64,000 nt of DNA from Bacilli bacterium (GCA_017617065.1 JAFZWP010000022.1:22931-86930); one strand, 5' to 3'. Positions 1-39,964 are shown, counted from the first letter of the stretch. The notes: generated by a model from the sequence alone, not told the origin. Numbers and translations: made by a program.

Positions 1-1494
1 TACGTAGCCTTCTAGCTCTTCCCAAGAAGCAGGATTTACACATTCAGTAATATCTTTAGTCTCATCTGGGATAATTAAAACATCAAATTTATTAAATTTA
101 GCTTTCTTAGCAGTTGTCGCTTCCACAAACCCAATAGTACCATTAGGTTTTCTTTCATTAAAACCAGATCCAGATAAAGTAGCTGGATCATACGACGCAT
201 GAACGCATACAATGTTTCCATCTTTATCATAATCTACATATTCAGCTTTAATAAAATATGCATGGAATAATCTTACTTCTAATCCCAAAGCTAAACGTTT
301 ATATTGTCTATTAGGTTTTTCCAAGCAGAAATCATCTTGTTCAATATATAAATATCTTGAAAAGGCAATCTTTCTTTCGCCTAATGCTTCGTTCTCTTGG
401 TTGTTTGATGCCGTTAAATATTCAATCTTTCCTTCTGGATAATTATCAATAACTACTTTTAAAGGTTTAGTTACTGCCATTATACGATTAACTTTAAGTT
501 TTAAATCTTCTCTAACGAAATGATCTAACATACCATCATCTACAGTAGAATTTATACGTGACAATCCTGCTGCTAATATAAATTCTTTAATAGCTTCAGG
601 ACTTACACCTCTTCTACGTAAACCTGCTAAAGTTGGCATACGTGGATCATCATATCCTTTAACTTTTCCACTGTCGACTAAAGCTTTTAAATATCTCTTG
701 CTCATAACAGTGTTAGGAATATTAAGACGACCAAATTCAATTTGTTCAGGAACATGTTCCATTTCGCATTCTCTAACTACCCAGTCATATAGTGGGCGAT
801 GATCTACATATTCTAAGCTACAAAGTGAATGTGTAATACCTTCAATTGAATCTTGTAAAGGATGAGCAAAATCATACATTGGATAAATGCACCATTTGTT
901 ACCTTGACGATGATGATTGATATGAATGATTCTATATAATACAGGATCACGCATATTAATGTTAGGAGAAGCCATATCAATTTTAGCTCTTAGAGTCTTT
1001 TCTCCATCTTTATACATACCATTTTTCATGTTTTCAAAAAGTTCTAAGTTTTCTTCTACACTTCTATTACGGTATGGAGATTCAATTCCTGGAGTAGATA
1101 AGCTACCACGATATTTATTAACTTCTTCAGCGCTTAAATCACAAACGTAAGCTAATCCTTTACGGATTAGTTTTTTAGCTAATTCGTATTGAGCATCAAA
1201 ATAATCAGAGCCAAAGAATACATTAGCAGGATCATAACCTAACCATTTAATATCATTCTTAATCGCTTCTACAAAACTAGCATCTTCTTTAACTGGATTA
1301 GTGTCATCAAATCTTAAATTAGTTTTTCCATTAAAACATTTAGCTAATTCAAAATTAGTAACAAGTGCCCTTGCATGACCAATATGTAAATATGCATTTG
1401 GTTCTGGTGGAAATCTAGTGACAATCTCACTTACTTTTCCACTAGCCAAATCCATTTCCATTTTTGTTTTTATAAAATTGGTAATTTCTGCCAT
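1..1494 (-). CDS. glnS: glutamine--tRNA ligase (GlnRS), C-terminal end cut by window edge
   Basis: My own minus-strand translation from the ATG at 1494-1492 gives MAEITNFIKTKMEMDLASGKVSEIVTRFPPEPNAYLHIGHARALVTNFELAKCFNGKTNLRFDDTNPVKED. It carries a class I HIGH motif and, further on, VMSKRYLK (KMSKS-type). The frame stays open to position 1. It is absent from the ORF track because no stop lies inside the window. Confidence 0.9.
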   Translation of the reverse strand, partial: MAEITNFIKTKMEMDLASGKVSEIVTRFPPEPNAYLHIGHARALVTNFELAKCFNGKTNLRFDDTNPVKEDASFVEAIKNDIKWLGYDPANVFFGSDYFDAQYELAKKLIRKGLAYVCDLSAEEVNKYRGSLSTPGIESPYRNRSVEENLELFENMKNGMYKDGEKTLRAKIDMASPNINMRDPVLYRIIHINHHRQGNKWCIYPMYDFAHPLQDSIEGITHSLCSLEYVDHRPLYDWVVRECEMEHVPEQIEFGRLNIPNTVMSKRYLKALVDSGKVKGYDDPRMPTLAGLRRRGVSPEAIKEFILAAGLSRINSTVDDGMLDHFVREDLKLKVNRIMAVTKPLKVVIDNYPEGKIEYLTASNNQENEALGERKIAFSRYLYIEQDDFCLEKPNRQYKRLALGLEVRLFHAYFIKAEYVDYDKDGNIVCVHASYDPATLSGSGFNERKPNGTIGFVEATTAKKAKFNKFDVLIIPDETKDITECVNPASWEELEGYV

Positions 1495-1498
1495 ACTT

Positions 1499-2158
1499 TT
1501 ACCTCTTAATAACTTCTATTTCTTCTATGTTTTTAGCATCAGCATATTTTTTAAATATGTTAATTGTTTCATCTTTATCTACATCTATTTCATTTTCCGA
1601 AAAGCAAATAACAAATACTAATATCTTTTTAGTAGTATCAGTAATCATAGTTCTTTCGGTATCGGATGTGGTAGATCCAAATGGACCAATACCATCTACA
1701 TACACTGGTATATTGCTAACATTTATTTGCCCTCTACCAATGCCATAGTATTCATCAGTCTCTCTACCTAGTCTAATCGATACATCCCCAACAATTTTAT
1801 CATAGTCAAGGATAGCTGTTGATCTAGCTAACTTAATCGATAAGATATTACCAGCATCGACTAAATTATTGATACGATATAGACCATATCCTTTAACTAA
1901 CCTTCTATATAATGATTCAACTGCTAGGCGGTAACGACTAGGATCTTTTCCTAAAGCTTTATAAGAATCTCTTGCCTCTTTGATAAGAGGAATATTCAAC
2001 ACCTCTTCAAGTGAATACTCCTCTTTAATCATTGATTCATATTTTTTTATCTCATCTTCAATAATAGCGCTATCCTTAAGTTTAACATCCATAGAATATG
2101 CTACTACATTAAAATGAGGTAATTTTTCAAGTATTTCTCTTTCAATTGCAACTTTCAT
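1499..2158 (-). CDS. stand-alone B3/B4 (PheT-like tRNA-binding) domain protein
   Basis: 219-aa ORF. The stretch GKDPSRYRLAVESLYRRLVKG...YRINNLVDAGNILSI resembles B3_4 domain proteins as I recall them. There is a 4-nt gap to the glnS start and a 1-nt gap to the upstream gene. Confidence 0.6.
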   Translation of the reverse strand: MKVAIEREILEKLPHFNVVAYSMDVKLKDSAIIEDEIKKYESMIKEEYSLEEVLNIPLIKEARDSYKALGKDPSRYRLAVESLYRRLVKGYGLYRINNLVDAGNILSIKLARSTAILDYDKIVGDVSIRLGRETDEYYGIGRGQINVSNIPVYVDGIGPFGSTTSDTERTMITDTTKKILVFVICFSENEIDVDKDETINIFKKYADAKNIEEIEVIKR

Positions 2159-2159
2159 A

Positions 2160-5100
2160 CTATCTATTCTTTTTATCGCGTTTAGCTTGATATTTCTTAA
2201 TTAAGCTTCCAGCTTCTTCAATCTTAGAAACTAGTTTTAAATATTCTTTAACGCGTTTATCTTTACTAGCATCATTTAGTTGCTTCTTAGTATAATCACG
2301 ATTATTCTTTAGATTATCGCCTTTAGCTTTTAATTCACTGATTTGATTCTTTAAGTTAGCAATTTCATTAGCATCATTACTTGCTTTTAATACTTCATTT
2401 AATCCCACAATCTTATCATTGTTTTCTTCAATTGCTTGATCAAATGATAAATATTGTTCTTTTAATGCTTTAAATTCTCTAACTGATGCAATATCAGTAC
2501 TGTATTTCTTTTCAGCTGCACAGAACTCTTCATATTTCTTACGTAGTTCTACTTCTTTAGGACTAATCTTACTTTCTTTAAGTTCCAGTTCTTCACTTGC
2601 AGGAGATGCAGTTTCTTTAACTTCTAGATTATCTTCATAAACATTATTATCTTTCAAAGCATCTTTTACTTCTTCTTTATCTACAGGAGTAACTGCTTCT
2701 TTGCCACTAACAACTTCACCTTTATCATTTAGTTTAATATCGGCAATATCTTCTTCTTCAATTAGTTTACGAGGTTGTCTAGAAACACGAGATTCTAAGA
2801 ATTCACGATATTTACGTTCTCTAATTTCATCTTGACTCTCAATTATACGTGGTTCATCATCTTTAATAACATTAGCTTCTTCAAATTTCTTGTTAAGTTC
2901 TGCCTCACGAGCTTGCTTTGATGCTTCTTTTGCTTGTTTAGAAAGATAAGTTTCTTTTAATTGTTTTTCTTCTTCTTCAAGTCTTAGAAGTTGATCTTCA
3001 ATTCCTTTGATAATGTTTTGATATCTTAAATCAATTTTTCTAACATCATCTTCTTTTAATTTTGCAAGTTGTGACTCGCGAGTATTTAATTCATAAATTA
3101 GTTTTTGTTTTTCAACTTCATATTTTTCTAATGCTTCTGCGCTGTGGTCTTCACCATTTTGATAATTAGCGCTAGCATCTTCGATTCTAGAATTTAATTC
3201 TTCAATCTTCTTAGCATATTCTTTTTGAAGAGCTTCGTTATTGCTTAATTCAATTTTGTGATTAGCAGTTTCTACTACTTTTCTTTCTTCTAGCGATTTA
3301 CGAGTACGGCGAATATTATTAAGTTTATTTAAATATTCGCTATCGAAAGTAATAACTACTTGTGGTTCTTCACTTGCTTCAATTAGTGGAACTTGTTCAG
3401 CTTCAAGTGGAGCAATATCGCCAAAGTCTCTTTGTACTTCTTGATCATAAACTGGAGCATCACTCGCCTTAACTTCTGGCATTGGTGCATCTTCTAAATC
3501 TACAATAACAGCATCCGCATCACTACTAGCTACAACAGGACTAACTACTTCACCATTTTTAATAGCATCAACTGCTTTATCTAAATTAGCATCTAGCCCC
3601 TTAATTGCTTTTGCATAAACATCATCAAGCATTTCTTTCTTAGCGCTAATTGTAGGTTTTGCATCATCGCCTGCATATTTACTTGCAATGTTAAGTTTAT
3701 CAGTCTCATTTGCATAAACAAATTCATTTTGTTTTTTAGCTTCTTTATAAGCGTCAAGTAAACTAGCTAAATTATTAAATCCAATTAAAGCATTAGGTTT
3801 AAATAATTCATTAATCTTATGAGAATATTCTTCTAATTCTTGATAATTAACAGCTTTATTTGCATTTTCTTGCTTCTTAGCTAATGCTTCATTCAAATCT
3901 CTAATTTGGGCTTCTAAAGCTTCAATCTTAGCATTCAAAGCATCACTTTCTTGCTTTCTTTCTCTTTGTAAGCCAGCAATTACTTGATCACGTTTAGCAA
4001 TTTCACGATCATGATCTTCTTTAACTCTTTCATCATATGGATCAGCATATCCATAGAATGGACCTTGATATGGAGGACGTGGAGCAAACATATCACGTCT
4101 AGATAAATCTTGAACCATGCTAGCAATTTGATCAATTTGCAAATCGCGTTTATTTTGTTTAATAGCATCTTCTAAACGTTTAATCTCTAATTCTTTTTCT
4201 TTCAAAGAATCATATAGTTTTTGTTCAGCTTCTAGATGTGCATTCTTTTCATTTTCTAATGCTTCACGATAATTCTCAATTACTAAAGCTGTATTAGCAA
4301 TGCTAGTTTCATTTTCTTCTACACCTTTAATCATTTCATCTAGTTGCTTACCAATTGCTTCACTTTGTTTAGCATAAGCAGCTTTTTCGATTTCAAGTTG
4401 CTCTTTTAACTTTTCAACTTCATTATTTAAGCTAACTATTTCTAGTTCTTTATCCGCAAGTTCTTTAGCTAAAGAATCATCTTTGTTATCTACTACTTCT
4501 CCATTAGTTAAAGCTCTAACTTTATCGCTAAGTCTACTAACTTCTTCGCTTAAAGAATTATTTAATTCACTCAAACTATTAATGCTTACATTTGCTTCAG
4601 CTAATTTTCTTTCTAAATCCAAGTTATTAACTGCTAAATCATTATTAGCTTTATTAGCGCTAGTTAATTTTTCATTTAAGTCTTTAACTTCATCTTGAAG
4701 ACCTAAATACTTCTTAGCTTCATCAGCTCTAATTTCTTCTTCTTTAATTACATTTTCTTTTTTGTATTTAGCTAGTTCATCTTTAGCAATCTTGACCTTT
4801 TCATCAGCTTTAGCATCGATTTCTTGCTTATATAAGTTAAGGTATGATTCCTGTAATTCTACTTCTTTCTTACCTTTTTCTAACTCTCTATTCTTTTCTA
4901 CAAGTTTATTTCTTTCATCTTCAACTTCACTCAATACATCAGCATCCTTAACATTTCTATCTTTAGCTGTATCTAAATCTTTCTTTAATAATTCAATTTC
5001 TTCATTAGCTAAATCAAGTTTCTTGGCATAATCTACTTTTAATTTTTCGATTTCTTCTTGTCTACTAGCTGCTGTATTATTAGCTTTAGTAAGTTGAATC

Positions 5101-6545
5101 TTAGTATTAGTTAATTCTTTGTTAACTTGATCAAATTCTTTTTGTTTTTCTTTTAATGCTTTATTATTTTCTTTTTGGATTTCCCTAACTTTCGCATTAA
5201 ATTCTTTATTTAAACTTGCTTCAATCTTTGATGTATCTACATTACTTGCAGCCTTTAGATCATTTGCTTCTTTAGTTAAGCGATCCACTTCACTGTCAAA
5301 TCTATTTTGTAATGCTTCATATTCTTCATCTTTTGCTTTTAGTGCTTCATTATATTTTTCACTTACACCTGAAGCTAGATTTTCATTTTCAATTTTTAAC
5401 TTCTCATTTTCACTTAAAGCAAGGGCTTCTTTAGCTTCTAATTCTATGACTTTAGCTTCTAAAGCGGCAATTTCTGATCTAAGTTTAGCAACTTCACCAT
5501 CTTCTTCAACTGGAACTTCTTTAACTTCGGCTTGAACTTTTGCAAGTTTATCTTTTAAATTCTTGTTCTTAGTTTCAAGTTCTTTAAGGTTTTCTTTTAC
5601 TTGATCGTCTTTAGCTAGTTTACCATCCATGATTCTTTGCTCTAAATCTTTTTTAGCAGCAATTTGTTCGCGTAAACGTTGTAAGCTTTCACTTACATTT
5701 TCATCTTTTTTAGCTGGACCATCTTTTTTAACTTCATTTTTCTTTGGTCCTAACTTTTCTAGACTATTATCATGTCCGCTCTTCTTAGCTACAACAATAT
5801 CATCATTATTGTTTTCTTTTTGAGCGTTTTCTAAACTAGCAAGTTTATCTTCAGCTGCTTTACGAGCAATTGCTCTAGCTTCTGATCTTTCTTTTTCACG
5901 CTTAATTAAAGCTTCGAGTCTTGCTTTCTCTTTTTCTTTTTCTTTAGCTTCTTTAAGAGCAAGTTTAGCTTTTTCTTTAGCTTTGGCTTGCTTAATTGCT
6001 TGCTTTTCTTTTTCTTTAGCTTTGGCTTTCTTAACTGCTTCTTTACGCTTAGCAGCCTCTTTTGCTTTAGCTAATTTTTCTTTTTCTTTCTTTGCTTGTT
6101 TTTGTGCTTCAGTTAAAGGCTTTTTAGCTGGTGCTTTCTTTTTAGCAGGCTTCTTAGCAGAAGTCTTCTTAGGAGCACTTTTAGCAGTTTTTGGCTTAGA
6201 AGCTTTTGGTTTTGCTTCTTTAACTTCTTCATTTTCAACTTTTGCAGGCGCAGTATCAGTAGCCTCTTCTTTAGCTGGCTTTGATGAGCTAGGTTCATCT
6301 TGAATAGGTTCATCTTGAACTTTAGCTTCAGCTGGAGCTTCATCTACTTTAGGTGCTTCTTCAACTACTGGCGAAGCGGCATCATTTGCAACTTTATCGT
6401 TAATAGCGTTTTCGATAATAGCACTATCATCTTCTGCTAATAGGCTCTTTTTCATATCCGCTAATTCTTTTTCGATAGAGAATTCTTCATCGTGTTTATT
6501 TGCGTTTTTATTTGTGTTACTATTCATTCTAAATTCCTCCGCCAA
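2160..6545 (-). CDS. giant K/E-rich coiled-coil protein, function unknown
   Basis: 1461-aa uninterrupted ORF. It has an acidic N-terminus followed by a basic AKP/KKPA low-complexity tract, then more than 1000 aa of heptad-like K/E/L/A sequence. A P/Y-rich break (FAPRPPYQGPFYGYADPYDE) interrupts this. No signal peptide, TM segment or LPXTG is visible. Confidence 0.85.
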   Translation of the reverse strand: MAEEFRMNSNTNKNANKHDEEFSIEKELADMKKSLLAEDDSAIIENAINDKVANDAASPVVEEAPKVDEAPAEAKVQDEPIQDEPSSSKPAKEEATDTAPAKVENEEVKEAKPKASKPKTAKSAPKKTSAKKPAKKKAPAKKPLTEAQKQAKKEKEKLAKAKEAAKRKEAVKKAKAKEKEKQAIKQAKAKEKAKLALKEAKEKEKEKARLEALIKREKERSEARAIARKAAEDKLASLENAQKENNNDDIVVAKKSGHDNSLEKLGPKKNEVKKDGPAKKDENVSESLQRLREQIAAKKDLEQRIMDGKLAKDDQVKENLKELETKNKNLKDKLAKVQAEVKEVPVEEDGEVAKLRSEIAALEAKVIELEAKEALALSENEKLKIENENLASGVSEKYNEALKAKDEEYEALQNRFDSEVDRLTKEANDLKAASNVDTSKIEASLNKEFNAKVREIQKENNKALKEKQKEFDQVNKELTNTKIQLTKANNTAASRQEEIEKLKVDYAKKLDLANEEIELLKKDLDTAKDRNVKDADVLSEVEDERNKLVEKNRELEKGKKEVELQESYLNLYKQEIDAKADEKVKIAKDELAKYKKENVIKEEEIRADEAKKYLGLQDEVKDLNEKLTSANKANNDLAVNNLDLERKLAEANVSINSLSELNNSLSEEVSRLSDKVRALTNGEVVDNKDDSLAKELADKELEIVSLNNEVEKLKEQLEIEKAAYAKQSEAIGKQLDEMIKGVEENETSIANTALVIENYREALENEKNAHLEAEQKLYDSLKEKELEIKRLEDAIKQNKRDLQIDQIASMVQDLSRRDMFAPRPPYQGPFYGYADPYDERVKEDHDREIAKRDQVIAGLQRERKQESDALNAKIEALEAQIRDLNEALAKKQENANKAVNYQELEEYSHKINELFKPNALIGFNNLASLLDAYKEAKKQNEFVYANETDKLNIASKYAGDDAKPTISAKKEMLDDVYAKAIKGLDANLDKAVDAIKNGEVVSPVVASSDADAVIVDLEDAPMPEVKASDAPVYDQEVQRDFGDIAPLEAEQVPLIEASEEPQVVITFDSEYLNKLNNIRRTRKSLEERKVVETANHKIELSNNEALQKEYAKKIEELNSRIEDASANYQNGEDHSAEALEKYEVEKQKLIYELNTRESQLAKLKEDDVRKIDLRYQNIIKGIEDQLLRLEEEEKQLKETYLSKQAKEASKQAREAELNKKFEEANVIKDDEPRIIESQDEIRERKYREFLESRVSRQPRKLIEEEDIADIKLNDKGEVVSGKEAVTPVDKEEVKDALKDNNVYEDNLEVKETASPASEELELKESKISPKEVELRKKYEEFCAAEKKYSTDIASVREFKALKEQYLSFDQAIEENNDKIVGLNEVLKASNDANEIANLKNQISELKAKGDNLKNNRDYTKKQLNDASKDKRVKEYLKLVSKIEEAGSLIKKYQAKRDKKNR

Positions 6546-7587
6546 ATAGTCCCCATATTATTTCAAAAGAAACATAGCCCCATACACCAGAAGCACATAA
6601 ATATGTTCCTTTAAATAGAATAAACTTTGTAATATAAAGGAATGTTTTTCTTCCTTTCATCTTTGCCATCTTATGAGTGTAAGCATCGCTCAATGCTTCA
6701 ATATCACTGAAATCAACATCAGTAATTCCTGTATCCTCAATTGGAAGCGGATCTAACTTACATTCTTTCTTACGCAAAGCCTTTTGATAATATTTTAAAG
6801 TTTTCTTTGATTTTTTTGCAAAATCACTGTTAACTTTGTTAGTCAGTTTTTCGTTTAAACTTGCATGAGTTTTTGTATAACTAGTAAACTCATGACAAAT
6901 GGCATGATACAAACCAATAAATAACATACTAGCAATAGCAATATAAAGACCTACTACTGCTACGATATTTACCCACTTAGACGAGAATGCTACTTGGCGT
7001 GCTGCTTCAAAATTAAGATGCATTTCTTTGCCAAATAATGTAAAGTCTTTTGTTATGCTCCATAACTTTGTTAAGCCAAAGTAGCAAATAATCAAGACAG
7101 CTAGTCCTAATGGTAAAAAGATATAAGCACCAACTTTAATCTTTTCAATATCGTTAGGTTTAACAGCTTCTTTTACATCGCTTACTTTTAAAATAACTTT
7201 TGATTTGTTTTCTTTAAAATCTTTAATCCATGCTTTAATTGCATTGATTATAATTTTCTTTCTCTTTGATAATCTAAATTCTTCAGTTCTAAGTACTTCT
7301 TTTAAAGTTCTTGTTTCTTTTCTTTTAACTTTTACTCTAAAGTCTTCAATTGAGTGTACATTACATTTCTCACTCTTATTTACTCTAAACATGAAAGGAT
7401 TAGAATTAATAGCGTGTTCATGTTCATATGCAACTTCTTCATTATAACGTTTAATTATTTCTTCTTTTTTCTCTAACTCTTCGTTTGAATTATCTACCGA
7501 AACGCTTGAATATTGTTCTTGGCTGGCTTCACTTGTTTTAGCAACAGGTTCAAGATCATAAGTTTTAATTTGATGATTCTTACGCAT
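6529..7587 (-). CDS. polytopic membrane protein, function unknown
   Basis: 352-aa ORF with a charged N-terminal part of about 150 aa. Hydrophobic segments are VGAYIFLPLGLAVLIICYFGL, WVNIVAVVGLYIAIASMLFIGLY and a C-terminal GTYLCASGVWGYVSFEIIWGLFGG. A strong RBS (AAAGGAGGATAAT) precedes the ATG. The 3' end overlaps the next gene by 17 nt. Confidence 0.75.
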   Translation of the reverse strand: MRKNHQIKTYDLEPVAKTSEASQEQYSSVSVDNSNEELEKKEEIIKRYNEEVAYEHEHAINSNPFMFRVNKSEKCNVHSIEDFRVKVKRKETRTLKEVLRTEEFRLSKRKKIIINAIKAWIKDFKENKSKVILKVSDVKEAVKPNDIEKIKVGAYIFLPLGLAVLIICYFGLTKLWSITKDFTLFGKEMHLNFEAARQVAFSSKWVNIVAVVGLYIAIASMLFIGLYHAICHEFTSYTKTHASLNEKLTNKVNSDFAKKSKKTLKYYQKALRKKECKLDPLPIEDTGITDVDFSDIEALSDAYTHKMAKMKGRKTFLYITKFILFKGTYLCASGVWGYVSFEIIWGLFGGGI

Positions 7588-7620: not shown

Positions 7621-8148
7621 CTATGCAACAACAGTTATAGCTTCAATAACTTCCTTGATTTGAGGAAGTATTCCAAATATCTTAATTGATATACTAGTAG
7701 ATGCAATAGCCCCTGGAACATTGATAAATATCAAGAATAAAATAAGGCCGACTACATATGCATTAACTAGACCTAATATTCCTCCAATTATACAAGACAA
7801 ACTTGATTTATCTTTTAAGAATGATTTAACATCACGCCTCTTAAATGCGCCAATGATTAAATACATTATAAGTTTTACAACTAGGTATACAATTAGTCCT
7901 ACAAATAGTTTAATAGCAATATCTGCTTCCATTACGAATACTACATTTACAACTTTCGCAATAATACTTTTAGTATTACCAATAGCGCTAATGATGCCTA
8001 CTAATAAATCATTTAAGAAGATGGCACAGGCAAGTCCAACTACACTACTTAGCGTTCTACGTAGTTGGTTATAAAAGCCAAAGTATAGTCCCGATAAGAA
8101 CATAAATATGGCAACTATTAATAAAACAACATCAAAATTAAAACTCAT
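7621..8148 (-). CDS. CvpA-family (colicin V production-like) membrane protein
   Basis: 175 aa with 4-5 hydrophobic helices. The N-terminus (FDVVLLIVAIFMFLSGLYFGFYNQLRRTLSSVVGL) matches the CvpA pattern as I recall it. Confidence 0.45.
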   Translation of the reverse strand: MSFNFDVVLLIVAIFMFLSGLYFGFYNQLRRTLSSVVGLACAIFLNDLLVGIISAIGNTKSIIAKVVNVVFVMEADIAIKLFVGLIVYLVVKLIMYLIIGAFKRRDVKSFLKDKSSLSCIIGGILGLVNAYVVGLILFLIFINVPGAIASTSISIKIFGILPQIKEVIEAITVVA

Positions 8149-8192: not shown

Positions 8193-8221
8193 ATTATACT
8201 ACAAGCCCCCTTATTTTACAA
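8193..8221 (-). promoter_or_regulatory. sigma-A type promoter TTGTAA-17nt-TATAAT for the cvpA-like / membrane / coiled-coil / B3_4 / glnS gene string
   Basis: The minus strand reads TTGTAAAATAAGGGGGCTTGTAGTATAAT. It lies just downstream of the tsaD terminator and upstream of the 8148 start. Confidence 0.55.
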
Positions 8222-8223
8222 AC

Positions 8224-8254
8224 TAAAAAAATCACATCCCCTAACAGATGTGAT
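8224..8254 (-). terminator. intrinsic terminator after tsaD
   Basis: Minus-strand stem ATCACATC / GATGTGAT with an 8-nt loop, followed by TTTTTTT. Confidence 0.8.
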
Positions 8255-15168: not shown

Positions 15169-16224
15169 TTATTGTAGATTATTTTCCATCATTGCATTTA
15201 GATAAACAGCTTCGTTTACGCTATCCCATGTAAGGCCAATCCAAGCATTATCATTAGTGTAATTATAATTAGTATACTCACCTTCTACCTCTGGTCCAGT
15301 GCATGTCCAACTTGATAATGATAAATCTAGATATGCTTTTAATGCTGCAAAAGTATCATAACCTAATTCTTCACCACCGATAATATCAAAGCAATAACTT
15401 GTAGCACCTTCTGAATATGGATAATCATCTACTTCTAATCCTTCTAATTCAGGAAGTAAGATGCCAGTTACTTTTTGGAATTCTCCTCTTGCTTTAGCAT
15501 ATGATTCACTCATATTATTATCGCTAGTTGGTTCAGGAAGTGTTGGAGCAACAACTGCAGAACCAGTTTTGAATTCAGTTACTTCATAATTGAAGCTTGA
15601 AGACTCGCCATCTACTGTAGCTTTAAATTCAACTTTCATTGTAATCCCAGTTTCTTTATCTACATATACTTTATATCCGAAATCAGAAAGACCAGCAAGT
15701 TTTCCAATTGCTCCACCAAGTCCTAAATTCAAATCATAAGTATAACAATTTCTACCAGCAACTTTGGCATCTGCACCTTTCTTGAATTGTCCATTATATG
15801 CATTTGCCCAATATAACCAACTAGTAGATGCTATTTTATAACTACTAATATATGATTCACCTTGTTCTTTTTGAACAGTTGATTCATATTTATAACCATC
15901 TTCATTATTATATGAATAATAATGAACACTTGCCTCTTCTTCTAAAAGAGCAGCTCCTTCACCATCTGTTAACATCCATACAACATTACCCTTAGCACCA
16001 ATTGTAAATGTGCCACTATCACCTTCATCATCACTATAGTGGAAAGTAATTAAATAACCATCGCTTTCCATCTTTTCTAATTTTTCTTGTGATTGTTCTT
16101 GTGTCATTTCTAAGCTATCATTAGCTTCATCATCGCCACCATTAATAGCATTGTTGATTGAATCACAGCCAACAAGCGCTAATGCAAATAAACATAACAA
16201 TAAAAAACTTAATATTTTCTTCAT
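15169..16224 (-). CDS. lipoprotein, function unknown
   Basis: Signal peptide and lipobox MKKILSFLLLCLFALALVGC. The start is set at the ATG preceded by GAGAGGAAAAGA. Confidence 0.7.
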   Translation of the reverse strand: MKKILSFLLLCLFALALVGCDSINNAINGGDDEANDSLEMTQEQSQEKLEKMESDGYLITFHYSDDEGDSGTFTIGAKGNVVWMLTDGEGAALLEEEASVHYYSYNNEDGYKYESTVQKEQGESYISSYKIASTSWLYWANAYNGQFKKGADAKVAGRNCYTYDLNLGLGGAIGKLAGLSDFGYKVYVDKETGITMKVEFKATVDGESSSFNYEVTEFKTGSAVVAPTLPEPTSDNNMSESYAKARGEFQKVTGILLPELEGLEVDDYPYSEGATSYCFDIIGGEELGYDTFAALKAYLDLSLSSWTCTGPEVEGEYTNYNYTNDNAWIGLTWDSVNEAVYLNAMMENNLQ

Positions 16225-16346
16225 TCTTTTCCTCTCTTTGCAATATATGTTTACTATAGAATTATAACACACATATTTAATACTTTCTATTTTTTATTTA
16301 TAAAAAAAATATCATACATTTGTACTAATACAATTTTCTGATTTTT

Positions 16347-16400: not shown

Positions 16401-17762
16401 ATGGGTTTAACACGCCGTAAAAATATACCTGTGGTAAGCTTGCTTTCACTAGGCTATTTCACCACTATATTAATAGCAACAATTTTACTATTGTTACCAG
16501 CTGCAAGCCGTGAAGGGCATACTAGTATTATAGATGCTATCTTAACAGCAACCAGTGCAACTTGTGTAACTGGTTTAATTGCTTTTGATACAGCAGCACA
16601 TTGGACACTGTTTGGTCAAATAGTCATAATGATAGCCATCCAAATTGGTGGTTTAGGCTTCATGACAATCATCACTTTACTATTTATGTTAGTAAAGAAA
16701 AACATAGGTTTATATAATCGTACTGTCATAATGCAATCAGCTGGATCATATAATATATCTGGTACAACTAAACTAATTAGAAGAATTGTCTTAGGTACAC
16801 TTGTATTTGAAGGAATTGGAGCTTTATTAATCTATTTAAGTATTAAAGATAGTCATCCAGATAAAACTTGGTACTATGCAATATTCCATTCAATATCTGC
16901 ATTTTGTAATGCCGGATTTGATGTATTTGGTGGAGCAAATGGAGTAACCGATCCAGTATCACTAGTCAACTTCTCTTCTAATTATGGTTTATTATTTACC
17001 TTAATGGGATTAATTATAATTGGTGGATCAGGATTTATCGTTTGGAGTGATGTGATTGATTCAAGATTTAAATGGAGTAAATTTCAAGTACATACAAAGA
17101 TTGTAATTGTAGCTAATGGTATATTGATTTTAATACCAGCGATATTATTCTTTGTTTTTGAATTTACAAGAGTTGGAACTAATGCGGCATTCGCAAATAT
17201 GCCACTTTTAGATAAGATAGTAAATGCGTTGTTTATGTCGGTAACCCCAAGAACTGCAGGTTTTAATAGTGTAGATTTAAATTCTATGACCGCTAGTGGC
17301 CAGCTTCTAACTACAGTATTAATGTTAATTGGCGGTAATTCTGGTTCTACTGCCGGTGGTGTTAAAGTAACAACAATTGTTATAATATTTGCCACTTTAA
17401 TTTCATCTGCCCGTGGACAAGAAAACGTAGTAATGTTTAAACGTCGAATAAATGAAAAATTAATCAAGCAGTCTTTATCACTTTTAGTTGCATATTTATC
17501 AATAATTATGGTCGCTACATTAATCATCGGTTCTTATGAAAACTACACGTTAATGGAAATACTATTTGAAGTAGTATCTGCTATTGGAACTGTAGGATTA
17601 TCACTTGGTGTCACAGGCACTTGCACTGTAGCCACAAAAATCATAATTATTGTATTAATGTATATAGGACGACTTGGAGCTCTAACCTTATTTGATTTAC
17701 TTCTAAAAGATAGAAATGATACGATTGTAGAAAAAGCTGAAGGAAAGGTATTGGTAGGATAA
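16401..17762 (+). CDS. ktrB: TrkH/KtrB-family K+ transporter membrane subunit
   Basis: 453-aa polytopic protein with selectivity-filter-like repeats (GGLGFMT, TPRTAGFNS, GGNSGSTAGGVKVTT). Confidence 0.9.
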   Translation: MGLTRRKNIPVVSLLSLGYFTTILIATILLLLPAASREGHTSIIDAILTATSATCVTGLIAFDTAAHWTLFGQIVIMIAIQIGGLGFMTIITLLFMLVKKNIGLYNRTVIMQSAGSYNISGTTKLIRRIVLGTLVFEGIGALLIYLSIKDSHPDKTWYYAIFHSISAFCNAGFDVFGGANGVTDPVSLVNFSSNYGLLFTLMGLIIIGGSGFIVWSDVIDSRFKWSKFQVHTKIVIVANGILILIPAILFFVFEFTRVGTNAAFANMPLLDKIVNALFMSVTPRTAGFNSVDLNSMTASGQLLTTVLMLIGGNSGSTAGGVKVTTIVIIFATLISSARGQENVVMFKRRINEKLIKQSLSLLVAYLSIIMVATLIIGSYENYTLMEILFEVVSAIGTVGLSLGVTGTCTVATKIIIIVLMYIGRLGALTLFDLLLKDRNDTIVEKAEGKVLVG

Positions 17763-18403
17763 TGAAAACTATATTAATTATTGGTATGGGCGAATTTGGT
17801 AAACACTTAGCATATCGCCTACAAGATTTAAAAGCTGATGTATGCGTAGTAGATACAGACAAAGAATTAATCAATGTTTTATCAGAAGATTTTGAAAACG
17901 CATATGTAGCAGATTGTACTAAAGATGCTGCGCTAAAAGATTTAGGCGTTAAAACATTTGATGTATGTGTTGTATCAGTTGGTAGTGACTTACAAACTTC
18001 ACTTGAAATTACATCAAAACTTAAATTAATGGGTGCTAAATACATCATTGCAAAGGCAACTAATACACTTCAATCAAAGTTCTTAATTATGGCTGGAGCT
18101 AATGAATCAATTTATCCAGAAAAAGATATAGCTTCAAAAGTTGCCCAAATGTGCATTGCAGATAATGTATTGGATGCATTTGTAATTTCTGATGAGTATA
18201 GCGTATTTGAAATGAAAGTACGTAGTGAATGGGTAGGTAAACCTCTAAAAGAATCTAACATTAGATCAAAGTACAACTTAAATGTTATGGCAGTTAGAGG
18301 AGATAACGGAATTATTGTTCCTGATCCAGATTATGTATTTGCTGAAGAAGATAGCGTATTCTTATTTGGTAAATCAGCAGTACTAAAGAAATTATCAAAA
18401 TAA
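17762..18403 (+). CDS. ktrA: K+ uptake regulatory subunit (TrkA-N/TrkA-C, KtrA-like)
   Basis: Rossmann motif IIGMGEFGKHLA with a C-terminal RCK_C-like part. A TAATG stop/start overlap links it to ktrB. Confidence 0.85.
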   Translation: MKTILIIGMGEFGKHLAYRLQDLKADVCVVDTDKELINVLSEDFENAYVADCTKDAALKDLGVKTFDVCVVSVGSDLQTSLEITSKLKLMGAKYIIAKATNTLQSKFLIMAGANESIYPEKDIASKVAQMCIADNVLDAFVISDEYSVFEMKVRSEWVGKPLKESNIRSKYNLNVMAVRGDNGIIVPDPDYVFAEEDSVFLFGKSAVLKKLSK

Positions 18404-18585: not shown

Positions 18586-19053
18586 CTATATTGATTTATA
18601 AAATAACTGATCAACTGTTTCAAATATTGTTTTATAATCGCCTATTTTTATAAAGCCATATTTTTCATATAATCCTTTTTCGCTACTCATAAGATAAATG
18701 TTTTTAAAGCCAAGTAACTTCGCATAAGTACTTGCTGAATCAATCATTTTTTCTGAGATACGATGCCCACGGTGTTGCTCATCTACAAACACGAATCCAA
18801 TAAATGGTGATAGATTATGCTCTACTGGCAATTCATCATCTTTAGTAAATGTACAATATCCAACTATTTCATTATCAATCGTTGCAACAACTACTCGTTC
18901 CCACTCAAGGAAATCCTTAGCTTTCATCTTATTTGCTAGAAATGGCCCTGCACTCCAAGAACTGTTGTTTGCAAAATCAATTGCTTTTTGCCAAAAAGGA
19001 TGATCTTTATTTAATAACAATAAATCTAGAGAGTGAATATTGTTTATTCCCAT
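18586..19053 (-). CDS. GNAT family N-acetyltransferase
   Basis: 155 aa with the motif HRGHRISEKMIDSASTYAKLLGF...LYEKYGF. It overlaps guaA by 10 nt. Confidence 0.7.
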   Translation of the reverse strand: MGINNIHSLDLLLLNKDHPFWQKAIDFANNSSWSAGPFLANKMKAKDFLEWERVVVATIDNEIVGYCTFTKDDELPVEHNLSPFIGFVFVDEQHRGHRISEKMIDSASTYAKLLGFKNIYLMSSEKGLYEKYGFIKIGDYKTIFETVDQLFYKSI

Positions 19054-20021
19054 TCAATAGTACCAGTTGGTTTTGGTGTAATATCTACTAATACTCTATT
19101 TACGCCTTTTACTTCATTTAAGATACGGTCGCGAATCTTAAATAGAATATCATAAGGTATTTCTTCTACTGTAGCGCTAGTAGCATCAACTGAGTTGACT
19201 GCTCTAATGACTACAAAGTATTCATAAGTTCTTTGGTTATTGTTAATACCAGTTGAACGATAATCAGGAACGATTGTGAAATATTGCCATACTTTTTTAG
19301 CTAGGCCACATTTAGCAAATTCTTCTCTTAAGATAGCATCGCTTTCACGAACTAATTCTAGTCTATCTCTAGTGATAGCTCCAGGGCATCTTACACCAAG
19401 TCCTGGGCCTGGGAACGGTTGTCTATAAACCATTTCTGGTTTTAAGCCTAAAGCAAGACCAACAAGTCTTACTTCATCTTTGTATAAGAATTTAACAGGT
19501 TCTACAAGTTCAAAATGTAAATCTTCAGGAAGTCCACCAACATTATGATGTGCTTTAATTCCATGAGATTCTAAAATATCAGGATAAATTGTTCCTTGAG
19601 CCAAGAATTTAATATCGTCTAGTTTTCTAGCTTCTTCTGCAAACACATCGATGAATTCTTTTCCTATAACTTTACGTTTTGCTTCAGGATCAGCAACTCC
19701 AGCAAGTTTATCTAAGAATCTATCAACAGCATCTACATAAATTAGTGTAGCACCTAATTCATCTTGAAATGTTTTAATAACTTGTTTACTTTCATCTTTT
19801 CTAAGCAAGCCATGATTTACATGCACGCAAACTAAGTTTTTACCAATGGCTTTTATAAGTAGAGCTGCTGTTACGCTTGAATCTACACCACCTGATAAAG
19901 CAAGTAGCACTTTATTGTTGCCAATTTGCGCTTTTAATTCTTTTACGCTTTCTTCTACGAACGCCTTTGCTTGTTCACTACTGACAATTCGTTTTAATGA
20001 TTCTGGTCTAACATTATCCAT
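19044..20021 (-). CDS. guaA: GMP synthase ATP-pyrophosphatase/dimerisation part only (no GATase domain)
   Basis: PP-loop LALSGGVDSSV, DPEAKRKVIGKEF, and a C-terminal VLVDITPKPTGTIEWE. At 325 aa, it begins right at the ATP-PPase domain. Confidence 0.85.
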   Translation of the reverse strand: MDNVRPESLKRIVSSEQAKAFVEESVKELKAQIGNNKVLLALSGGVDSSVTAALLIKAIGKNLVCVHVNHGLLRKDESKQVIKTFQDELGATLIYVDAVDRFLDKLAGVADPEAKRKVIGKEFIDVFAEEARKLDDIKFLAQGTIYPDILESHGIKAHHNVGGLPEDLHFELVEPVKFLYKDEVRLVGLALGLKPEMVYRQPFPGPGLGVRCPGAITRDRLELVRESDAILREEFAKCGLAKKVWQYFTIVPDYRSTGINNNQRTYEYFVVIRAVNSVDATSATVEEIPYDILFKIRDRILNEVKGVNRVLVDITPKPTGTIEWE

Positions 20022-20023
20022 AT

Positions 20024-20983
20024 TTATCGATCCTCTCTGTAATAATTTACACCAAGTGCTTTCGGTGGTTGCGAATTCTTAGCATCTAAAATCGAAGTAA
20101 CAACCAAAACGATTACTGTAATTACATATGGTAAAATTGCAAATAATTTTTTTTGAATGACAGGAATATTTAGGTAAATTGGCAAAATTGATAAAGCACC
20201 AAAAATGATTGATCCAAAAATGCCATATACCGGCTTCCACATAGAAAATATAACTAAAGCCACTGCTAACCAGCCGAACGCCTCAATTGTCGCTTCTACA
20301 AAAGTAGTCCCACCACTGACATTAAATACATAGTAAGCCCCACCAAGTCCTGCTATAGCAGATCCAGCAATAATTGCTAAATATTTATATAAAAGGACAT
20401 TTACGCCTTGGCTATCAGCAGTTTGAGGTGACTCACCAATTGCTCTTAAGAATAGGCCTTTTCTTGTCTTATTTAAAAACAAGCCTGCAAGAACTGCTAG
20501 GGCAATTGATAAATATGTTAAGAAACTATATGACAAGAATATTTCCCCAAACCAACCTAAATTTGATGCGTTTGGAAAAATAGCACCAACATTTCTACTA
20601 GCAAGTGTAAGATTATCGTTACCTATTTTAGAACCTACAAAACGCATAAAGCCAACGCCAAACATTGTAAGTACTAATCCAGTTACATTTTGGTTGGCTT
20701 GAAATGTTACCGTTAAAGTAGCATAAATGAGCCCCCCTATAACAGCAAATATGATAGAAAATAGTATTATCATGATTAATAAGACAACACCTACTACACT
20801 ATCTACACCAAATAAAGCAAAATAGATTCTACTTCCAATTACTCCGCCAAGAGCGCCTAAGCTCATAATACCAGGAATACCTAGATTTAGGTTTCCGCCT
20901 TTTTCAATAACTATTTCGCCAGTACAGCCGAATAGATATACAACACCCATTGAAATTGAAAGAACAATGAAACTAGTAAGCAT
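20024..20983 (-). CDS. ABC transporter permease (BMP/nucleoside-type importer)
   Basis: 319-aa polytopic protein. It is the second of two permeases downstream of a double-cassette ATPase and a BMP lipoprotein. Confidence 0.8.
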   Translation of the reverse strand: MLTSFIVLSISMGVVYLFGCTGEIVIEKGGNLNLGIPGIMSLGALGGVIGSRIYFALFGVDSVVGVVLLIMIILFSIIFAVIGGLIYATLTVTFQANQNVTGLVLTMFGVGFMRFVGSKIGNDNLTLASRNVGAIFPNASNLGWFGEIFLSYSFLTYLSIALAVLAGLFLNKTRKGLFLRAIGESPQTADSQGVNVLLYKYLAIIAGSAIAGLGGAYYVFNVSGGTTFVEATIEAFGWLAVALVIFSMWKPVYGIFGSIIFGALSILPIYLNIPVIQKKLFAILPYVITVIVLVVTSILDAKNSQPPKALGVNYYREDR

Positions 20984-20985
20984 TA

Positions 20986-22131
20986 CTATTTTTCCTCCTC
21001 TTTCTTGTTATTCTTCCTAAAGAAATCTAAATTAATCTTAAAATGATAGCGAATAAAGAATTCACTGAGTAAGATTGAGAAGAATATAATACCTATCAAA
21101 ACATTTGATAAATCGTTTGAACCCAGCCTAAATACACTTGATACTTTTGATGTACCATTTGTTAAGAAAGCTAAGAAGAATGATACAAGTGCCATAACAA
21201 ATGGATTAAAGTTTGATAACCAAGCTACTAGTATTCCAGTAAATCCTAAAGATCCACAAGTATTAGGACTAACTGAATAGTTGATAGCTGAAGTATATAA
21301 AAATCCTATAATTCCACACATAGCTCCAGATAATATTAGGGTTCTTATAATTATCCATTTTGTATTCATTCCTACATATTTAGCAGTATTAATGCTATCG
21401 CCCACAACATTTACTTCATAACCATGTTTAGTCTTAGACATATAAAACCAAATAAAGAATGTAATTAAAATTACAACTAAAATTGGTAAAAAGTATTGGT
21501 TAAATACTGGTGGTAACCAACCAGCTTTTGATGAAGCATTGATGATTCCAGGAGCTTCTTGCTTACCTTTTGCTAAGGAATAATTAACATAGCTTACAAG
21601 CCCTGCTGCTATATAGTTAGTCATTAAAGTAAACAAAGTCTCATTTGTTTTAAAGAACACTTTAAATATTGCGGGGATGACGGCAAAGATAATACTTGAT
21701 GCTACACTTACTACAAACATTAAAGCGATTAACAAGAAATTATTAAGTCCACTTTGCGATGCCCACGTTCCTAAATAAAACATCAGAATAACACTCATTA
21801 ATGCTCCAATCAAAACTTGACCATTTGCTCCCATGTTCCAATATTTCATTTTGAAAGGAGGTAGTATAGCAATACCAAATGCAAGTAGTATTGCTGTATC
21901 ACGAAGCAGCTTCCAAGGGTTAATAAATGCACCAGTAAATAATGTGCCAATAACGCTAAAGATGTTTTCTTTGATGATTAAACTTGAAAGAATCATCGCA
22001 AATAAGAATGAAGCAAGAATTGCAATTACACGAATTAAGTTAGCTTTCCATTTAGGTAAATCATTTCTCCTAATAATGGAAAACAATTCTTTATGATGAC
22101 GTTTATTTTTTAATGTATCAGTGTTTTCCAT
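20986..22131 (-). CDS. ABC transporter permease (BMP/nucleoside-type importer)
   Basis: Polytopic protein. The start is set at the ATG one nt after the ATPase stop; the track start at 22143 is a GTG inside the upstream gene. Confidence 0.8.
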   Translation of the reverse strand: MENTDTLKNKRHHKELFSIIRRNDLPKWKANLIRVIAILASFLFAMILSSLIIKENIFSVIGTLFTGAFINPWKLLRDTAILLAFGIAILPPFKMKYWNMGANGQVLIGALMSVILMFYLGTWASQSGLNNFLLIALMFVVSVASSIIFAVIPAIFKVFFKTNETLFTLMTNYIAAGLVSYVNYSLAKGKQEAPGIINASSKAGWLPPVFNQYFLPILVVILITFFIWFYMSKTKHGYEVNVVGDSINTAKYVGMNTKWIIIRTLILSGAMCGIIGFLYTSAINYSVSPNTCGSLGFTGILVAWLSNFNPFVMALVSFFLAFLTNGTSKVSSVFRLGSNDLSNVLIGIIFFSILLSEFFIRYHFKINLDFFRKNNKKEEEK

Positions 22132-22132
22132 A

Positions 22133-23731: not shown

Positions 23732-23813
23732 ATCAAGGCCCTCCTTTATTTAAACAAGATAAGGCGGAAAAAGATTTCCGCCTTATTTATTTTTATATAC
23801 CTTTTTATCTAAA

Positions 23814-25058
23814 TTATTTTAATTCATCAATTAGTACAACGCCATCGATAATTAAATCGAAGTATGGAGCACTACGATATTCTGATTCATGGAAGTATCC
23901 ATCATGGATTGCTTCTGTATCACCAGCATATGCTGGATCAGAATCAACATCTGCTAAATAAGATGTAACTTTATGAGTTACTGGATCAACTGTAGCATTG
24001 AAGTTATAGAATGTAGTAGTTCCATTGCCTCTTGTAGATACAGTAAATGTAGATGTATCAAATACATGTAATTCACCAGATTGAAGTTTAGCTTTTACTT
24101 CATCAAGTTTAGCTTGAGTAGTGCTTACTGCAGCTTTTGCTCCTGGAGCATCTAATTTAACTGAACCAGTTGCGATTGTTCCAGTATAATCTTTTTCAGA
24201 TACTTTTTCACCATTCATAGCAGCTTTGATCATCTTAACATAATATGGAGTCCAGTCAATCTTGCTAGATACAACATATGTATTAGGGCATTTGCCTTCT
24301 GTAGTTCCGTTATATGTTACATTTGGAACACCAGCAGCTTCACAAGCTTCAGGAGCACCATATGAGTCAGCATGTTGAGAAATTAATAAACAATGTCTAT
24401 CGATTAATTTTTGAGCAGCAGCTTTTTCAGCGTTGAAATCATACCAAGAGTTAGTATAAGTAACTTCCATTGTTGCTAGAGGTACGATTGAACGAACGCC
24501 TAAATAGAATGAAGTATAACCAGAAATAACTTCTGCGTATGGGAATGCAGCAACATAACCGATCTTTGGATCAGCTGTAGGGTTAGCAGCTAATAATTCT
24601 TGTAATTTCAAACCAGCAGCAACGCCTGCTAAATATCTACCTTCATAAATTGCTGCGAAAGCATTGAAGTAATTATCTAATTTTTCAGTATGAGCTTTTG
24701 TACCAGTTGCATGGCAGAACATAACTTCTGGTTTTTCTTTAGCAGCTTGAATCATAAAGTCTTCGTGACCAAATGAGTCAGCAAATACAACTTTACAAGT
24801 AGCAGCAAGTTCTACAGCCTTTTCATAGCATTCATTTCCTTCAGGAACACCAGTAACTAATTCTAATTGGCTCTTCTTAAGACCGCATTCTTCTAATGCA
24901 CGATACATAGATTCAATAAAGTTGTTATCATAAGTTGATGATTCATCATGTAAGCAGATTAGACCAACTTTGAATTTATTGCTTTGACAAGCAGTTAATG
25001 CAAACACTGTACATACACACATTACTAAAACTAAAACTAACTTAAAAAACTTTTTCAT
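23814..25058 (-). CDS. BMP-family (PnrA/Med-like) substrate-binding lipoprotein
   Basis: Lipobox VFALTAC followed by KVGLICLHDESSTYDNNF. It is in an operon with the ABC importer and xpt. Confidence 0.8.
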   Translation of the reverse strand: MKKFFKLVLVLVMCVCTVFALTACQSNKFKVGLICLHDESSTYDNNFIESMYRALEECGLKKSQLELVTGVPEGNECYEKAVELAATCKVVFADSFGHEDFMIQAAKEKPEVMFCHATGTKAHTEKLDNYFNAFAAIYEGRYLAGVAAGLKLQELLAANPTADPKIGYVAAFPYAEVISGYTSFYLGVRSIVPLATMEVTYTNSWYDFNAEKAAAQKLIDRHCLLISQHADSYGAPEACEAAGVPNVTYNGTTEGKCPNTYVVSSKIDWTPYYVKMIKAAMNGEKVSEKDYTGTIATGSVKLDAPGAKAAVSTTQAKLDEVKAKLQSGELHVFDTSTFTVSTRGNGTTTFYNFNATVDPVTHKVTSYLADVDSDPAYAGDTEAIHDGYFHESEYRSAPYFDLIIDGVVLIDELK

Positions 25059-25688: not shown

Positions 25689-25755
25689 AAAAACAAGAAT
25701 AACAAAATATGATATTAATTAATCCCTAAAAATTAGTATTATTAATATCCAGTTA

Positions 25756-25825: not shown

Positions 25826-25843
25826 TTATTTAGTTACACATAT

Positions 25844-39962: not shown

Positions 39963-39964
39963 AT

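Follow-up and report, generated by a model that had tools for sequence, protein, structure and literature searches.

EzrA, a regulator of division in Bacillales and Lactobacillales, is a membrane-anchored, long and all-helical cytoplasmic scaffold of Firmicutes-type bacteria, built as a single polypeptide of ~560 aa with its own N-terminal transmembrane (TM) helix and spectrin-like repeats. Here we describe a gene pair of comparable design in a 64,000-nt stretch of a Bacilli bacterium genome (GCA_017617065.1, JAFZWP010000022.1:22931-86930; the whole stretch is called the window below). In this pair the anchor and the rod are on separate genes, one encoding a 352-aa membrane protein and the other a giant Lys/Glu-rich protein of 1455 aa (the giant), and the rod is ~2.6 times longer than EzrA. 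Both products belong to undescribed families. The explanation that we favour, at a probability of roughly 0.4, is that they form a lineage-specific, membrane-anchored coiled-coil scaffold with an arm that would bind DNA, possibly acting as a tether between nucleoid and membrane.

Long heptad rods with non-helical interruptions are also found in crescentin, FilP/Scy, Helicobacter Ccrp, the cyanobacterial CCRPs and the polar landmarks TipN/HubP, which are lineage-specific and fast-evolving families. Some of these scaffold proteins are attached to the membrane, and in TipN the coiled coil comes after TM helices at the N-terminus. Unlike these, with which no sequence or profile similarity was found, the present rod has a separate, co-conserved membrane partner and an H1-like basic arm, and filament formation would be only hypothetical for it. 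Chlamydia Hc2, Pseudomonas AlgP, mycobacterial Ku/HupB, Streptomyces DdbA and PhaF/PhaM carry low-complexity (A/T/S)KK(A/P) repeats that vary in number and sequence between close relatives, as the arm of the giant does. For Lys-rich tails of this PAKKA/H1-like kind, binding to DNA is documented (PMC3553676, PMC2848022, PMC3643593), as is binding to polyanions (PMC9239181). This likeness is one of composition and not of homology, and here the tract forms an internal arm of a 1455-aa rod and not the tail of a small nucleoid protein.

The proposed logic, in which a coiled-coil or amphipathic element connects a DNA-binding module with the membrane, is that of RacA-DivIVA, Noc and RocS. These are, however, small proteins with defined helix-turn-helix or ParB DNA-binding domains that reach the membrane by an amphipathic helix or DivIVA; they show no homology to the pair, in which nothing points to sequence-specific binding. 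In SMC, MukB and Rad50, coiled coils of great length are associated with DNA, an association that the giant may share, but the giant is without ATPase head, hinge domain or Walker A motif. HMW2 of Mycoplasma pneumoniae, from a low-GC lineage related to Bacilli, is a ~1800-aa cytoplasmic coiled coil of the terminal organelle with a Pro-rich interruption and membrane-associated partners. The giant resembles it in these respects, but no similarity was detected, and the organisms studied here use the standard genetic code and have relatives whose contigs carry wall amidase and sporulation genes. In function the pair would resemble EzrA, TipN, the coiled-coil scaffolds, the H1-like tails and the DNA-membrane tethers; none of the tests for homology with them was positive.

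The giant and its membrane partner

Scans of both proteins against Pfam, NCBIfam, PHROGs and PADLOC yielded nothing beyond coiled-coil noise below the thresholds, and sequence-profile searches of the PDB found no relative of either. AlphaFold2 (AF2) models of both proteins were compared by Foldseek with the PDB, and that of the membrane protein also with BFVD, and the best matches (E 0.1-0.3) were to generic BAR and coiled-coil folds. A preliminary description of the locus, made from the sequence without database searches, had been unable to place either protein in a described family, which these results bear out. It had also named surface antigens, EzrA, SMC and phage tape measures as examples of families to which a confident match would refute its reading, and none of them appeared. 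The profile scans returned no surface antigen or tape measure for the giant. The SMC model TIGR02168 (SMC_prok_B) reached 16.6 bits where 567.35 are required, the match being confined to coiled-coil residues; SMC_N of Pfam gave no match, and an SMC/MukB-type protein was rejected on this score and on the missing Walker A motif. Membership in EzrA was rejected as well, there being no Pfam match at E<=0.1, no Foldseek match and no N-terminal TM helix in the giant.

The giant is composed of 15% Lys, 15% Glu and 12% Ala, with one Cys and no Trp. In keeping with the earlier remark that no signal peptide, TM segment, sortase motif or enzymatic motif could be recognised in it, a sequence scan found no signal peptide, LPXTG-like motif or Walker A motif, the maximum 19-residue hydropathy is 1.1, the N-terminus is hydrophilic and the C-terminus is basic and non-hydrophobic. 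Also, a Pfam scan found no wall-binding or choline-binding domain, and we infer that the giant is cytoplasmic. The net charge is -15 over residues 1-100, in keeping with the acidic N-terminal segment noted before, and +26 over residues 101-200, which contain the equally predicted AKP/KKPA tract.

A crude score of a/d heptad positions flagged 39% of the giant residues, in five blocks, against 4.5% in shuffles (a flag being a score above the 95th percentile of shuffles). The AF2 model, which covers residues 256-1455 with 8 orthologues in the alignment, has 77% helix at a mean predicted local distance difference test score (pLDDT) of 64 and a predicted template modelling score (pTM) of 0.24, scores that would be expected when a rod is modelled as a monomer. 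In the first half of the modelled region lie helices of 83, 91, 142 and 128 residues, and with this helix content and these lengths (83-142 residues) the giant has the long segmented heptad-repeat rod of the intermediate-filament-like, coiled-coil-rich scaffolds, a class defined by function and not by homology. Non-helical stretches of low confidence were predicted at ~811-829, 991-1062 and 1249-1322, besides shorter breaks. Because helices and heptad blocks are thus split by at least three long non-helical stretches, the rod is, as modelled, real but modular, with several hinges and not one. The heptad rod of the preliminary description therefore stands, whereas its single interruption does not; the Pro/Tyr-rich linker that it gave as this interruption is found as FAPRPPYQGPFYGYADPYDE (Table 1). 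If fully extended, the 926 predicted helical residues would span ~140 nm.

The order of the giant's elements is conserved across clades. (Homologues and their loci carry our own labels, P and L numbers.) The protein starts with the motif [DE]F[SP][IL]..EL.D.K..LL, followed by a linker that varies and contains a basic Lys/Pro/Ala/Ser/Thr tract, the signature LQ[KR]LREQI.A.K.LE, a rod of variable length, an aromatic/Pro/Gly/Met patch, a conserved block (...YLNK.N.IR...) and C-terminal helices. The core of the first motif (DFS[IL]..EL.D.K) was matched as a pattern in the L013, L022, L025 and L019 clades; the L016 orthologue has a similar N-terminal ESFSIIDELDKLKNSLL, which was read by eye and is not matched by the core pattern. 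The signature, searched as LQ[KR]L[RK][EDA][QK]I, is present in 14 of the 18 giants examined, across clades, and Y/P/M/N-rich patches analogous to FAPRPPYQGPFYGYADPYDE occur in P0025, L019, P0104 and L020. In residues 834-990 the conserved non-heptad part reads LLDAY...DKLNIA...LDANL. The block of residues 1063-1248 has long invariant runs and can be recognised in P0025 and L019, and the likewise conserved C-terminal region (residues 1323-1455) has the highest pLDDT of the model (80-92).

The basic tract of the window's giant, KPKASKPKTAKSAPKKTSAKKPAKKKAPAK, reaches a net charge of +13 in 30 aa, whereas no later stretch of the protein exceeds +7, and has the Lys/Ala/Pro repeats and the strong positive charge of the H1/AlgP/PAKKA compositional class. 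In close orthologues it consists of (A/T)KK(A/T)PAKK repeats. Most orthologues across clades have a basic tract at the equivalent position, where sequence and length drift and the charge of 30 aa lies between +6 and +13; other parts of the giants reach +4 to +7. The strongest tracts (+8 to +13 in 30 aa) are the most positive window of their protein; this is not so in L019 (+6 before the signature, +7 after it). The tract keeps its character while drifting, as tails of the H1/PAKKA type do. In the L016 orthologue (L016:5226-8288, the gene being cut by the contig end), residues ~90-160 form a helix-hairpin-helix (HhH) domain, of a DNA-binding fold, like the C-terminal domain (CTD) of the RNA polymerase alpha subunit (RpoA), beside a short Lys-rich stretch. 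An isolated 79-aa segment matched PF03118 with E=1.8e-11 (44 bits, cut-off 23.8), and RpoA CTD chains of the PDB with E down to 7e-8 (1z3e_B). The window's giant has no HhH domain and has the Lys/Ala/Pro tract alone at that position. This domain lends independent support, from a single clade, to a nucleic-acid-binding arm. The earlier comparison of the tract with H1/AlgP/Hc-type nucleic-acid-binding tails agrees with its composition, its position in most orthologues and the L016 domain; its ligand may be DNA or another polyanion.

Of the two AF2 models that the preliminary description had proposed, that of the membrane protein is confident (pLDDT 87, pTM 0.70, with a family alignment of 61 sequences); that of the giant is helical but has the low pTM and the additional interruptions given above. 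The description of the membrane protein as polytopic holds for two strong TM helices, while a third at the C-terminus is only probable and is kept tentative because its hydropathy is below 1.6. Lys and Arg number 33 in the N-terminus, 5 in the first loop and 18 in the second loop, a distribution which puts both the N-domain and the long second loop on the cytoplasmic side (N-in) and so bears out the charged cytoplasmic N-domain that had been proposed. In the model, a helix at 34-60 is followed by a small alpha/beta element that holds NPF and SIEDF, a helix at 106-141 and TM1; then come an outside beta-hairpin (179-192), a 67-residue helix made of TM2 and its cytoplasmic extension to residue 270, and lastly a 56-residue helix ending in the C-terminal hydrophobic segment. 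With this topology ~240 residues would be cytoplasmic and form long helices, and ~30 would lie outside. The conserved positions of the family (N63-P64-F65, SIEDF 79-83, R100, W120 and YY266-267) are mostly on the cytoplasmic side. Five family members (P0043, P0065, P0072, P0076 and P0081) carry N-terminal low-complexity extensions of 100-270 aa, either Q/N/Y/P-rich or K/E/R-rich and coiled-coil-like, which precede the conserved NPF...SIEDF domain.

Junction, distribution and divergence of the pair

The longest open reading frame (ORF) of the giant has 1461 codons and runs from a TTG at 6545 to 2160 on the complementary strand, as first reported. That ORF is there, but its TTG start was rejected: the ATG at 6527 is preferred because GGAGG lies 8 nt 5' of it, the TTG would precede this Shine-Dalgarno site, and independent metagenome gene calls on identical contigs give 1455 aa. 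ATG 6527 is therefore the most likely start. The 17-nt overlap with the membrane gene that followed from the TTG start is thereby replaced by a 1-nt gap, so that the junction consists of the membrane-gene stop, 1 nt and the giant ATG; the Shine-Dalgarno site is part of the membrane gene. The 352-aa ORF of the latter was found as described (Table 1). Even with the corrected start, this is by its sequence a tightly and translationally coupled arrangement.

Among 1.84 billion cluster representatives, searched exhaustively with HMMER, the membrane protein has 71 relatives, 43 of them at E<=1e-10; nearly all are 300-345 aa long and matched full-length. The named members are labelled 'hypothetical protein [Bacilli bacterium]' and come from metagenome-assembled genomes (MAGs), and the sole GTDB species representative found is a yak-rumen MAG, 'Bacilli bacterium RGIG10139'. 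For the giant, a search limited to 8000 candidates gave at least 9 homologous proteins; more distant giants were reached via their membrane partners. We examined the contexts of membrane-family members from 100% down to ~20% identity. A long K/E-rich gene begins 1-24 nt after the membrane gene in all 14 informative contexts, those at 20-29% identity included, and adjacency in related genomes, which the preliminary description had wanted checked, thus holds throughout (loci L001-L006, L007, L009, L010, L012, L013, L015, L016, L019, L020, L022, L023, L025 and L027). The count is of distinct lineages, and three further loci end at the membrane gene. The downstream orthologues are 1044-1683 aa long where complete and at least 427 aa where cut by a contig end, and the junction gap was 1-24 nt in ten other loci.

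A variant arrangement occurs in the distant relative L017 (GCA_964389905.1, L017:11003-16060), where the giant is split. Its first piece, K/E/R-rich and with an assembly gap inside, has a TM helix of its own at the C-terminus. Next comes a coiled-coil protein of 877 aa, in which a basic tract at the N-terminus and three near-identical tandem repeats are found. An LRR_5 lipoprotein-like gene takes the place of cvpA in this locus.

The two proteins diverge in step, with identities of 54/60, 61/65, 65/61, 83/78, 29/30, 25/27 and 24/28%. Together with the cvpA-like gene upstream they diverge far faster than the flanking genes (cvpA 25-66%, membrane protein 20-83% and giant 27-78%, against 74-97% for glnS and 67-88% for tsaD), and all three keep pace with one another. 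Also, both families were seen only in the same uncultured low-GC Bacilli contigs (for the giant, among the matches listed), and the tight junction is kept where the upstream neighbour has changed, cvpA being lost in L020 and the leucine-rich-repeat gene inserted in L017. These three observations, namely the common set of contigs, the junction kept despite upstream changes and the matched divergence, set the pair apart from mere synteny.

Weighing the explanations

In the scaffold that we favour, the 352-aa protein would be the anchor, sitting N-in in the cytoplasmic membrane with two or three TM helices and sending ~240 residues of long helices into the cytoplasm. The giant would be the cytoplasmic rod, segmented and hinged and probably dimeric through its heptad blocks. 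One end of the rod would dock on the membrane protein, for which either the N-terminal motif EEFSIEKELADMKKSLL, a candidate docking peptide invariant in close orthologues, or the conserved C-terminal helices may serve. The H1/PAKKA-like Lys/Ala/Pro tract of the flexible N-terminal arm would bind DNA non-specifically, and as a result the nucleoid would be tethered or organised at the membrane, or a sub-membrane lattice would serve chromosome organisation or division. We favour this reading because of the tight coupling, the adjacency in 14 of 14 contexts, the matched rates, the confident membrane fold, the cytoplasmic helical giant, the basic tract and the L016 HhH domain.

Several observations weigh against it. 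The AF2 rod model has a low global confidence (pTM 0.24), the HhH domain is found in one clade only, and the downstream coiled-coil proteins of L015 and L027 have no recognisable motifs. The TM helix in the L017 piece suggests that the separate membrane protein is not the sole possible anchor. Since synteny in these genomes extends over the whole pgi-tsaEBD-...-B3_4-glnS-pcrA-ligA region, adjacency by itself does not distinguish the pair, and the matched divergence could also be explained by shared phylogeny. Lastly, Lys-rich tails bind not only DNA but also polyphosphate, as shown for AlgP (PMC9239181), heparan sulphate, as for HBHA (PMC10665949), RNA or acidic lipids.

This last point leads to the rival that survives best, a membrane-associated cytoskeletal or division scaffold without DNA binding, after the manner of EzrA, DivIVA, FilP/Scy or TipN, which we regard as possible though somewhat unlikely. 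The tract would then contact acidic phospholipids, polyphosphate, RNA or protein, and the rod would position the division or growth machinery. The evidence from architecture and coupling is identical for this rival and for the DNA-binding scaffold, and the RpoA alpha-CTD fold also mediates protein-protein contacts. Coiled-coil-rich proteins are, besides, typical of bacterial scaffolds (10.1101/674176, PMC3296230), and the polyphosphate granules bound by AlgP show that such a tail may serve another polyanion (PMC9239181). What tilts us towards DNA is the PAKKA/H1-type tract and, in one orthologue, the HhH domain, which jointly are more specific to it; that the downstream genes pcrA, ligA and uvrA are DNA-related is a weak hint in the same direction.

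It is distinctly less probable that a membrane protein and a soluble coiled coil that act independently are adjacent only through the rigid synteny of a narrow lineage. The flanking housekeeping genes are equally invariant neighbours, and the interaction between the two proteins is hypothetical. Against this stand the occurrence of both families in only the same uncultured low-GC Bacilli contigs (the giant among the matches listed, and no genome having been checked for one gene without its partner), the 1-24 nt junctions where upstream genes have changed, and evolutionary rates that agree between the two proteins but not with the neighbouring genes.

It is very unlikely that the giant is a fibril or adhesin (M-protein or Ebh type) exported to the surface, with the membrane protein as its dedicated exporter or anchor. 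The long K/E-rich coiled coil and the Pro-rich segments are reminiscent of the wall-spanning regions in surface proteins of Gram-positive bacteria, and the pair evolves rapidly. Yet the giant has none of the export and wall-attachment features searched for above, the conserved mass of the membrane protein is cytoplasmic with ~30 residues outside, and the PDB sequence and Foldseek searches showed no resemblance of the membrane protein to any transporter. An LPXTG/M-protein-like surface antigen was rejected for the missing LPXTG-like motif and for the character of both termini.

Long helical proteins are known from phage tails and from some defence systems, but a mobile-element, phage (tape-measure-like) or anti-phage defence module is hardly credible here, and a phage structural protein or a phage, plasmid or defence origin was rejected: there is no PHROGs match, none of the three proteins scanned with PADLOC (giant, membrane protein and CvpA-like protein) matched a model, tblastn of the membrane protein against 50,697 phage and 72,556 plasmid records found nothing, the comparison with viral folds gave no match, and the position among housekeeping genes is fixed in the chromosome across divergent genomes, with a uniform base composition.

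A bolder version of the tethering scaffold, which we hold to be rather doubtful, is a chromosome-membrane tethering system unrecognised before and somewhat like a nuclear lamina. It would consist of a three-TM stalk of new fold, a hinged rod of ~140 nm and interchangeable DNA-binding heads (an H1-like Lys tract or an RpoA alpha-CTD-like HhH domain), and would organise or segregate the nucleoid in uncultured gut Bacilli, perhaps replacing canonical factors that are absent from these reduced genomes. The families are undescribed while the design is familiar; what is unusual about it is the split between anchor and rod and the apparently swappable DNA-binding head. If the tether were true, a separate stalk, a giant hinged rod and a swappable head would be a new architecture among the few DNA-membrane links of bacteria; if the pair were merely a lineage-specific cytoskeletal element, it would be useful for the annotation of MAGs and unsurprising. 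Both proteins are labelled 'hypothetical protein' in the databases and are conserved in uncultured gut Bacilli of ruminants and fermenters. Because the pair fills ~5.4 kb of a small genome beside core housekeeping genes, an important cellular role is implied, for which the confident, unmatched fold of the membrane protein and the short conserved motifs provide concrete and testable handles.

Operon and remaining window

The pair belongs to a run of five genes on the complementary strand (cvpA-like, membrane protein, giant, B3_4 and glnS; Table 1), which agrees with the operon context first described. The near-consensus promoter was located where it had been placed, just 3' of the terminator-like hairpin of tsaD and 45 nt 5' of the first gene. 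Its position is what supports it, since promoter-type matches are not commoner in this DNA than in shuffled sequence. The CvpA-like assignment of the first gene is a probable one: its product matches Colicin_V (PF02674) with E=2.8e-5 and 24.6 bits, below the Pfam gathering cut-off of 29.3, and the orthologues in L009, L013, L015 and L016 carry a recorded PF02674 match. The gene is found in 9 of 11 full contexts (it is missing from L017 and L020; in L007 it is there, though uncalled) and is thus a frequent, non-obligatory first gene of the module. Downstream, B3_4 starts 1 nt after the giant stop and is followed by glnS, which is 95% identical to the L007 orthologue bearing tRNA-synt_1c domains. 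The absence of a terminator before these genes was confirmed by a hairpin scan, which found no terminator-like site at any junction within the five-gene run; two other hairpins of the same strand (6594..6577 and 1170..1152) fall within coding sequence, of the membrane protein and of glnS respectively, and have no T-run.

Table 1. Features of the five-gene region, in the direction of transcription (window coordinates; residues are those of the respective protein)
Feature	Position	Strand	Residues	Remarks
Terminator-like hairpin and T-run	8231..8254	-		end of upstream tsaE-tsaB-rimI-tsaD genes (tsaEBD-rimI operon)
Sigma-70-like promoter candidate TTGTAA-17-TATAAT	8193..8221	-		precedes cvpA-like gene; 10/12 consensus positions
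CvpA-like small membrane protein	7621..8148	-	175 aa	Colicin_V match below gathering cut-off
Membrane protein, undescribed family	6529..7587	-	352 aa	AF2 model and family search
TM1	7078..7134	-	152-170	19-residue hydropathy 2.31; AF2 helix 152-170
TM2	6910..6966	-	208-226	19-residue hydropathy 2.59; AF2 helix 204-270
C-terminal hydrophobic helix (probable third TM)	6550..6639	-	317-346	AF2 helix 293-348; hydropathy <1.6
Giant K/E-rich, mostly alpha-helical protein	2160..6527	-	1455 aa	from ATG 6527
Conserved N-terminal short motif EEFSIEKELADMKKSLL	6438..6488	-	14-30	invariant in close orthologues
Acidic, Pro-rich linker	6219..6437	-	31-103	poorly conserved
Histone-H1/PAKKA-like Lys/Ala/Pro tract	6117..6218	-	104-137	net +13 in 30 aa
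K/E/A-rich charged helix region, KKPLTEAQKQAKKEKEK to KEKEKARLEALIKREKE	5823..6116	-	138-235	conserved
Family signature ENVSESLQRLREQIAAKKDLEQRIMDG	5622..5702	-	276-302	
Main rod	4098..5621	-	~303-810	four long predicted helices of 83-142 residues; heptad character
Aromatic/Pro/Gly patch FAPRPPYQGPFYGYADPYDE, predicted hinge	4029..4088	-	814-833	AF2: non-helical, low pLDDT
Helical region	3558..4028	-	834-990	one heptad block and conserved non-heptad helical part
Acidic Pro-rich disordered linker	3342..3557	-	991-1062	pLDDT <50; poorly conserved
Most conserved block, QVVITFDSEYLNKLNNIRRTRKSLEERKVVE then helices	2784..3341	-	1063-1248	pLDDT 80-89
Acidic disordered linker	2562..2783	-	1249-1322	AF2
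C-terminal three-helix region ending in basic KKYQAKRDKKNR	2160..2561	-	1323-1455 and stop	
B3_4-domain protein	1499..2158	-	219 aa	PF03483 E=1.9e-16
glnS (glutaminyl-tRNA synthetase)	1..1494	-	N-terminal 498 codons	truncated by window edge

The window has a low GC content (~31%), with a uniform base composition across the region, and the remainder of it is ordinary chromosome with transporters, glycosidases, a purine riboswitch operon and efp. The riboswitch (57 bits, 25742-25842, complementary strand) lies upstream of a phosphoribosyltransferase gene (25078-25644), downstream of which come an operon for a nucleoside ABC transporter of the Bmp/PnrA type (20024-25058) and a gene of the GMP-synthase C-terminal/PP-ATPase kind (19044-20021). 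A purple-acid-phosphatase-like metallophosphoesterase at 36249-38462 on the forward strand carries a type I dockerin and a Listeria-Bacteroides repeat, which hints at cellulosome-like surface assemblies in the organism. Two GH18 (chitinase-like) genes were found, at 25963-27621 on the complementary and 33438-34421 on the forward strand, one of them with Big_2 domains and probably secreted. The listed ORFs at 27614-28180 (2-thiouracil desulfurase-like) and 28044-28763 (HD-domain), both on the complementary strand, overlap by 137 nt, and the GTG start of the downstream ORF has probably been set too far upstream. At 15169-16272, also on the complementary strand, a conserved 367-aa ORF with a GTG start (351 aa in orthologous loci) and without a Pfam match has a YebC-like gene on one side and TrkH on the other. 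Genes for TrkH/TrkA potassium uptake occur as two separate pairs within the 64 kb, at 16401-18403 on the forward strand and 38508-41317 on the complementary strand.

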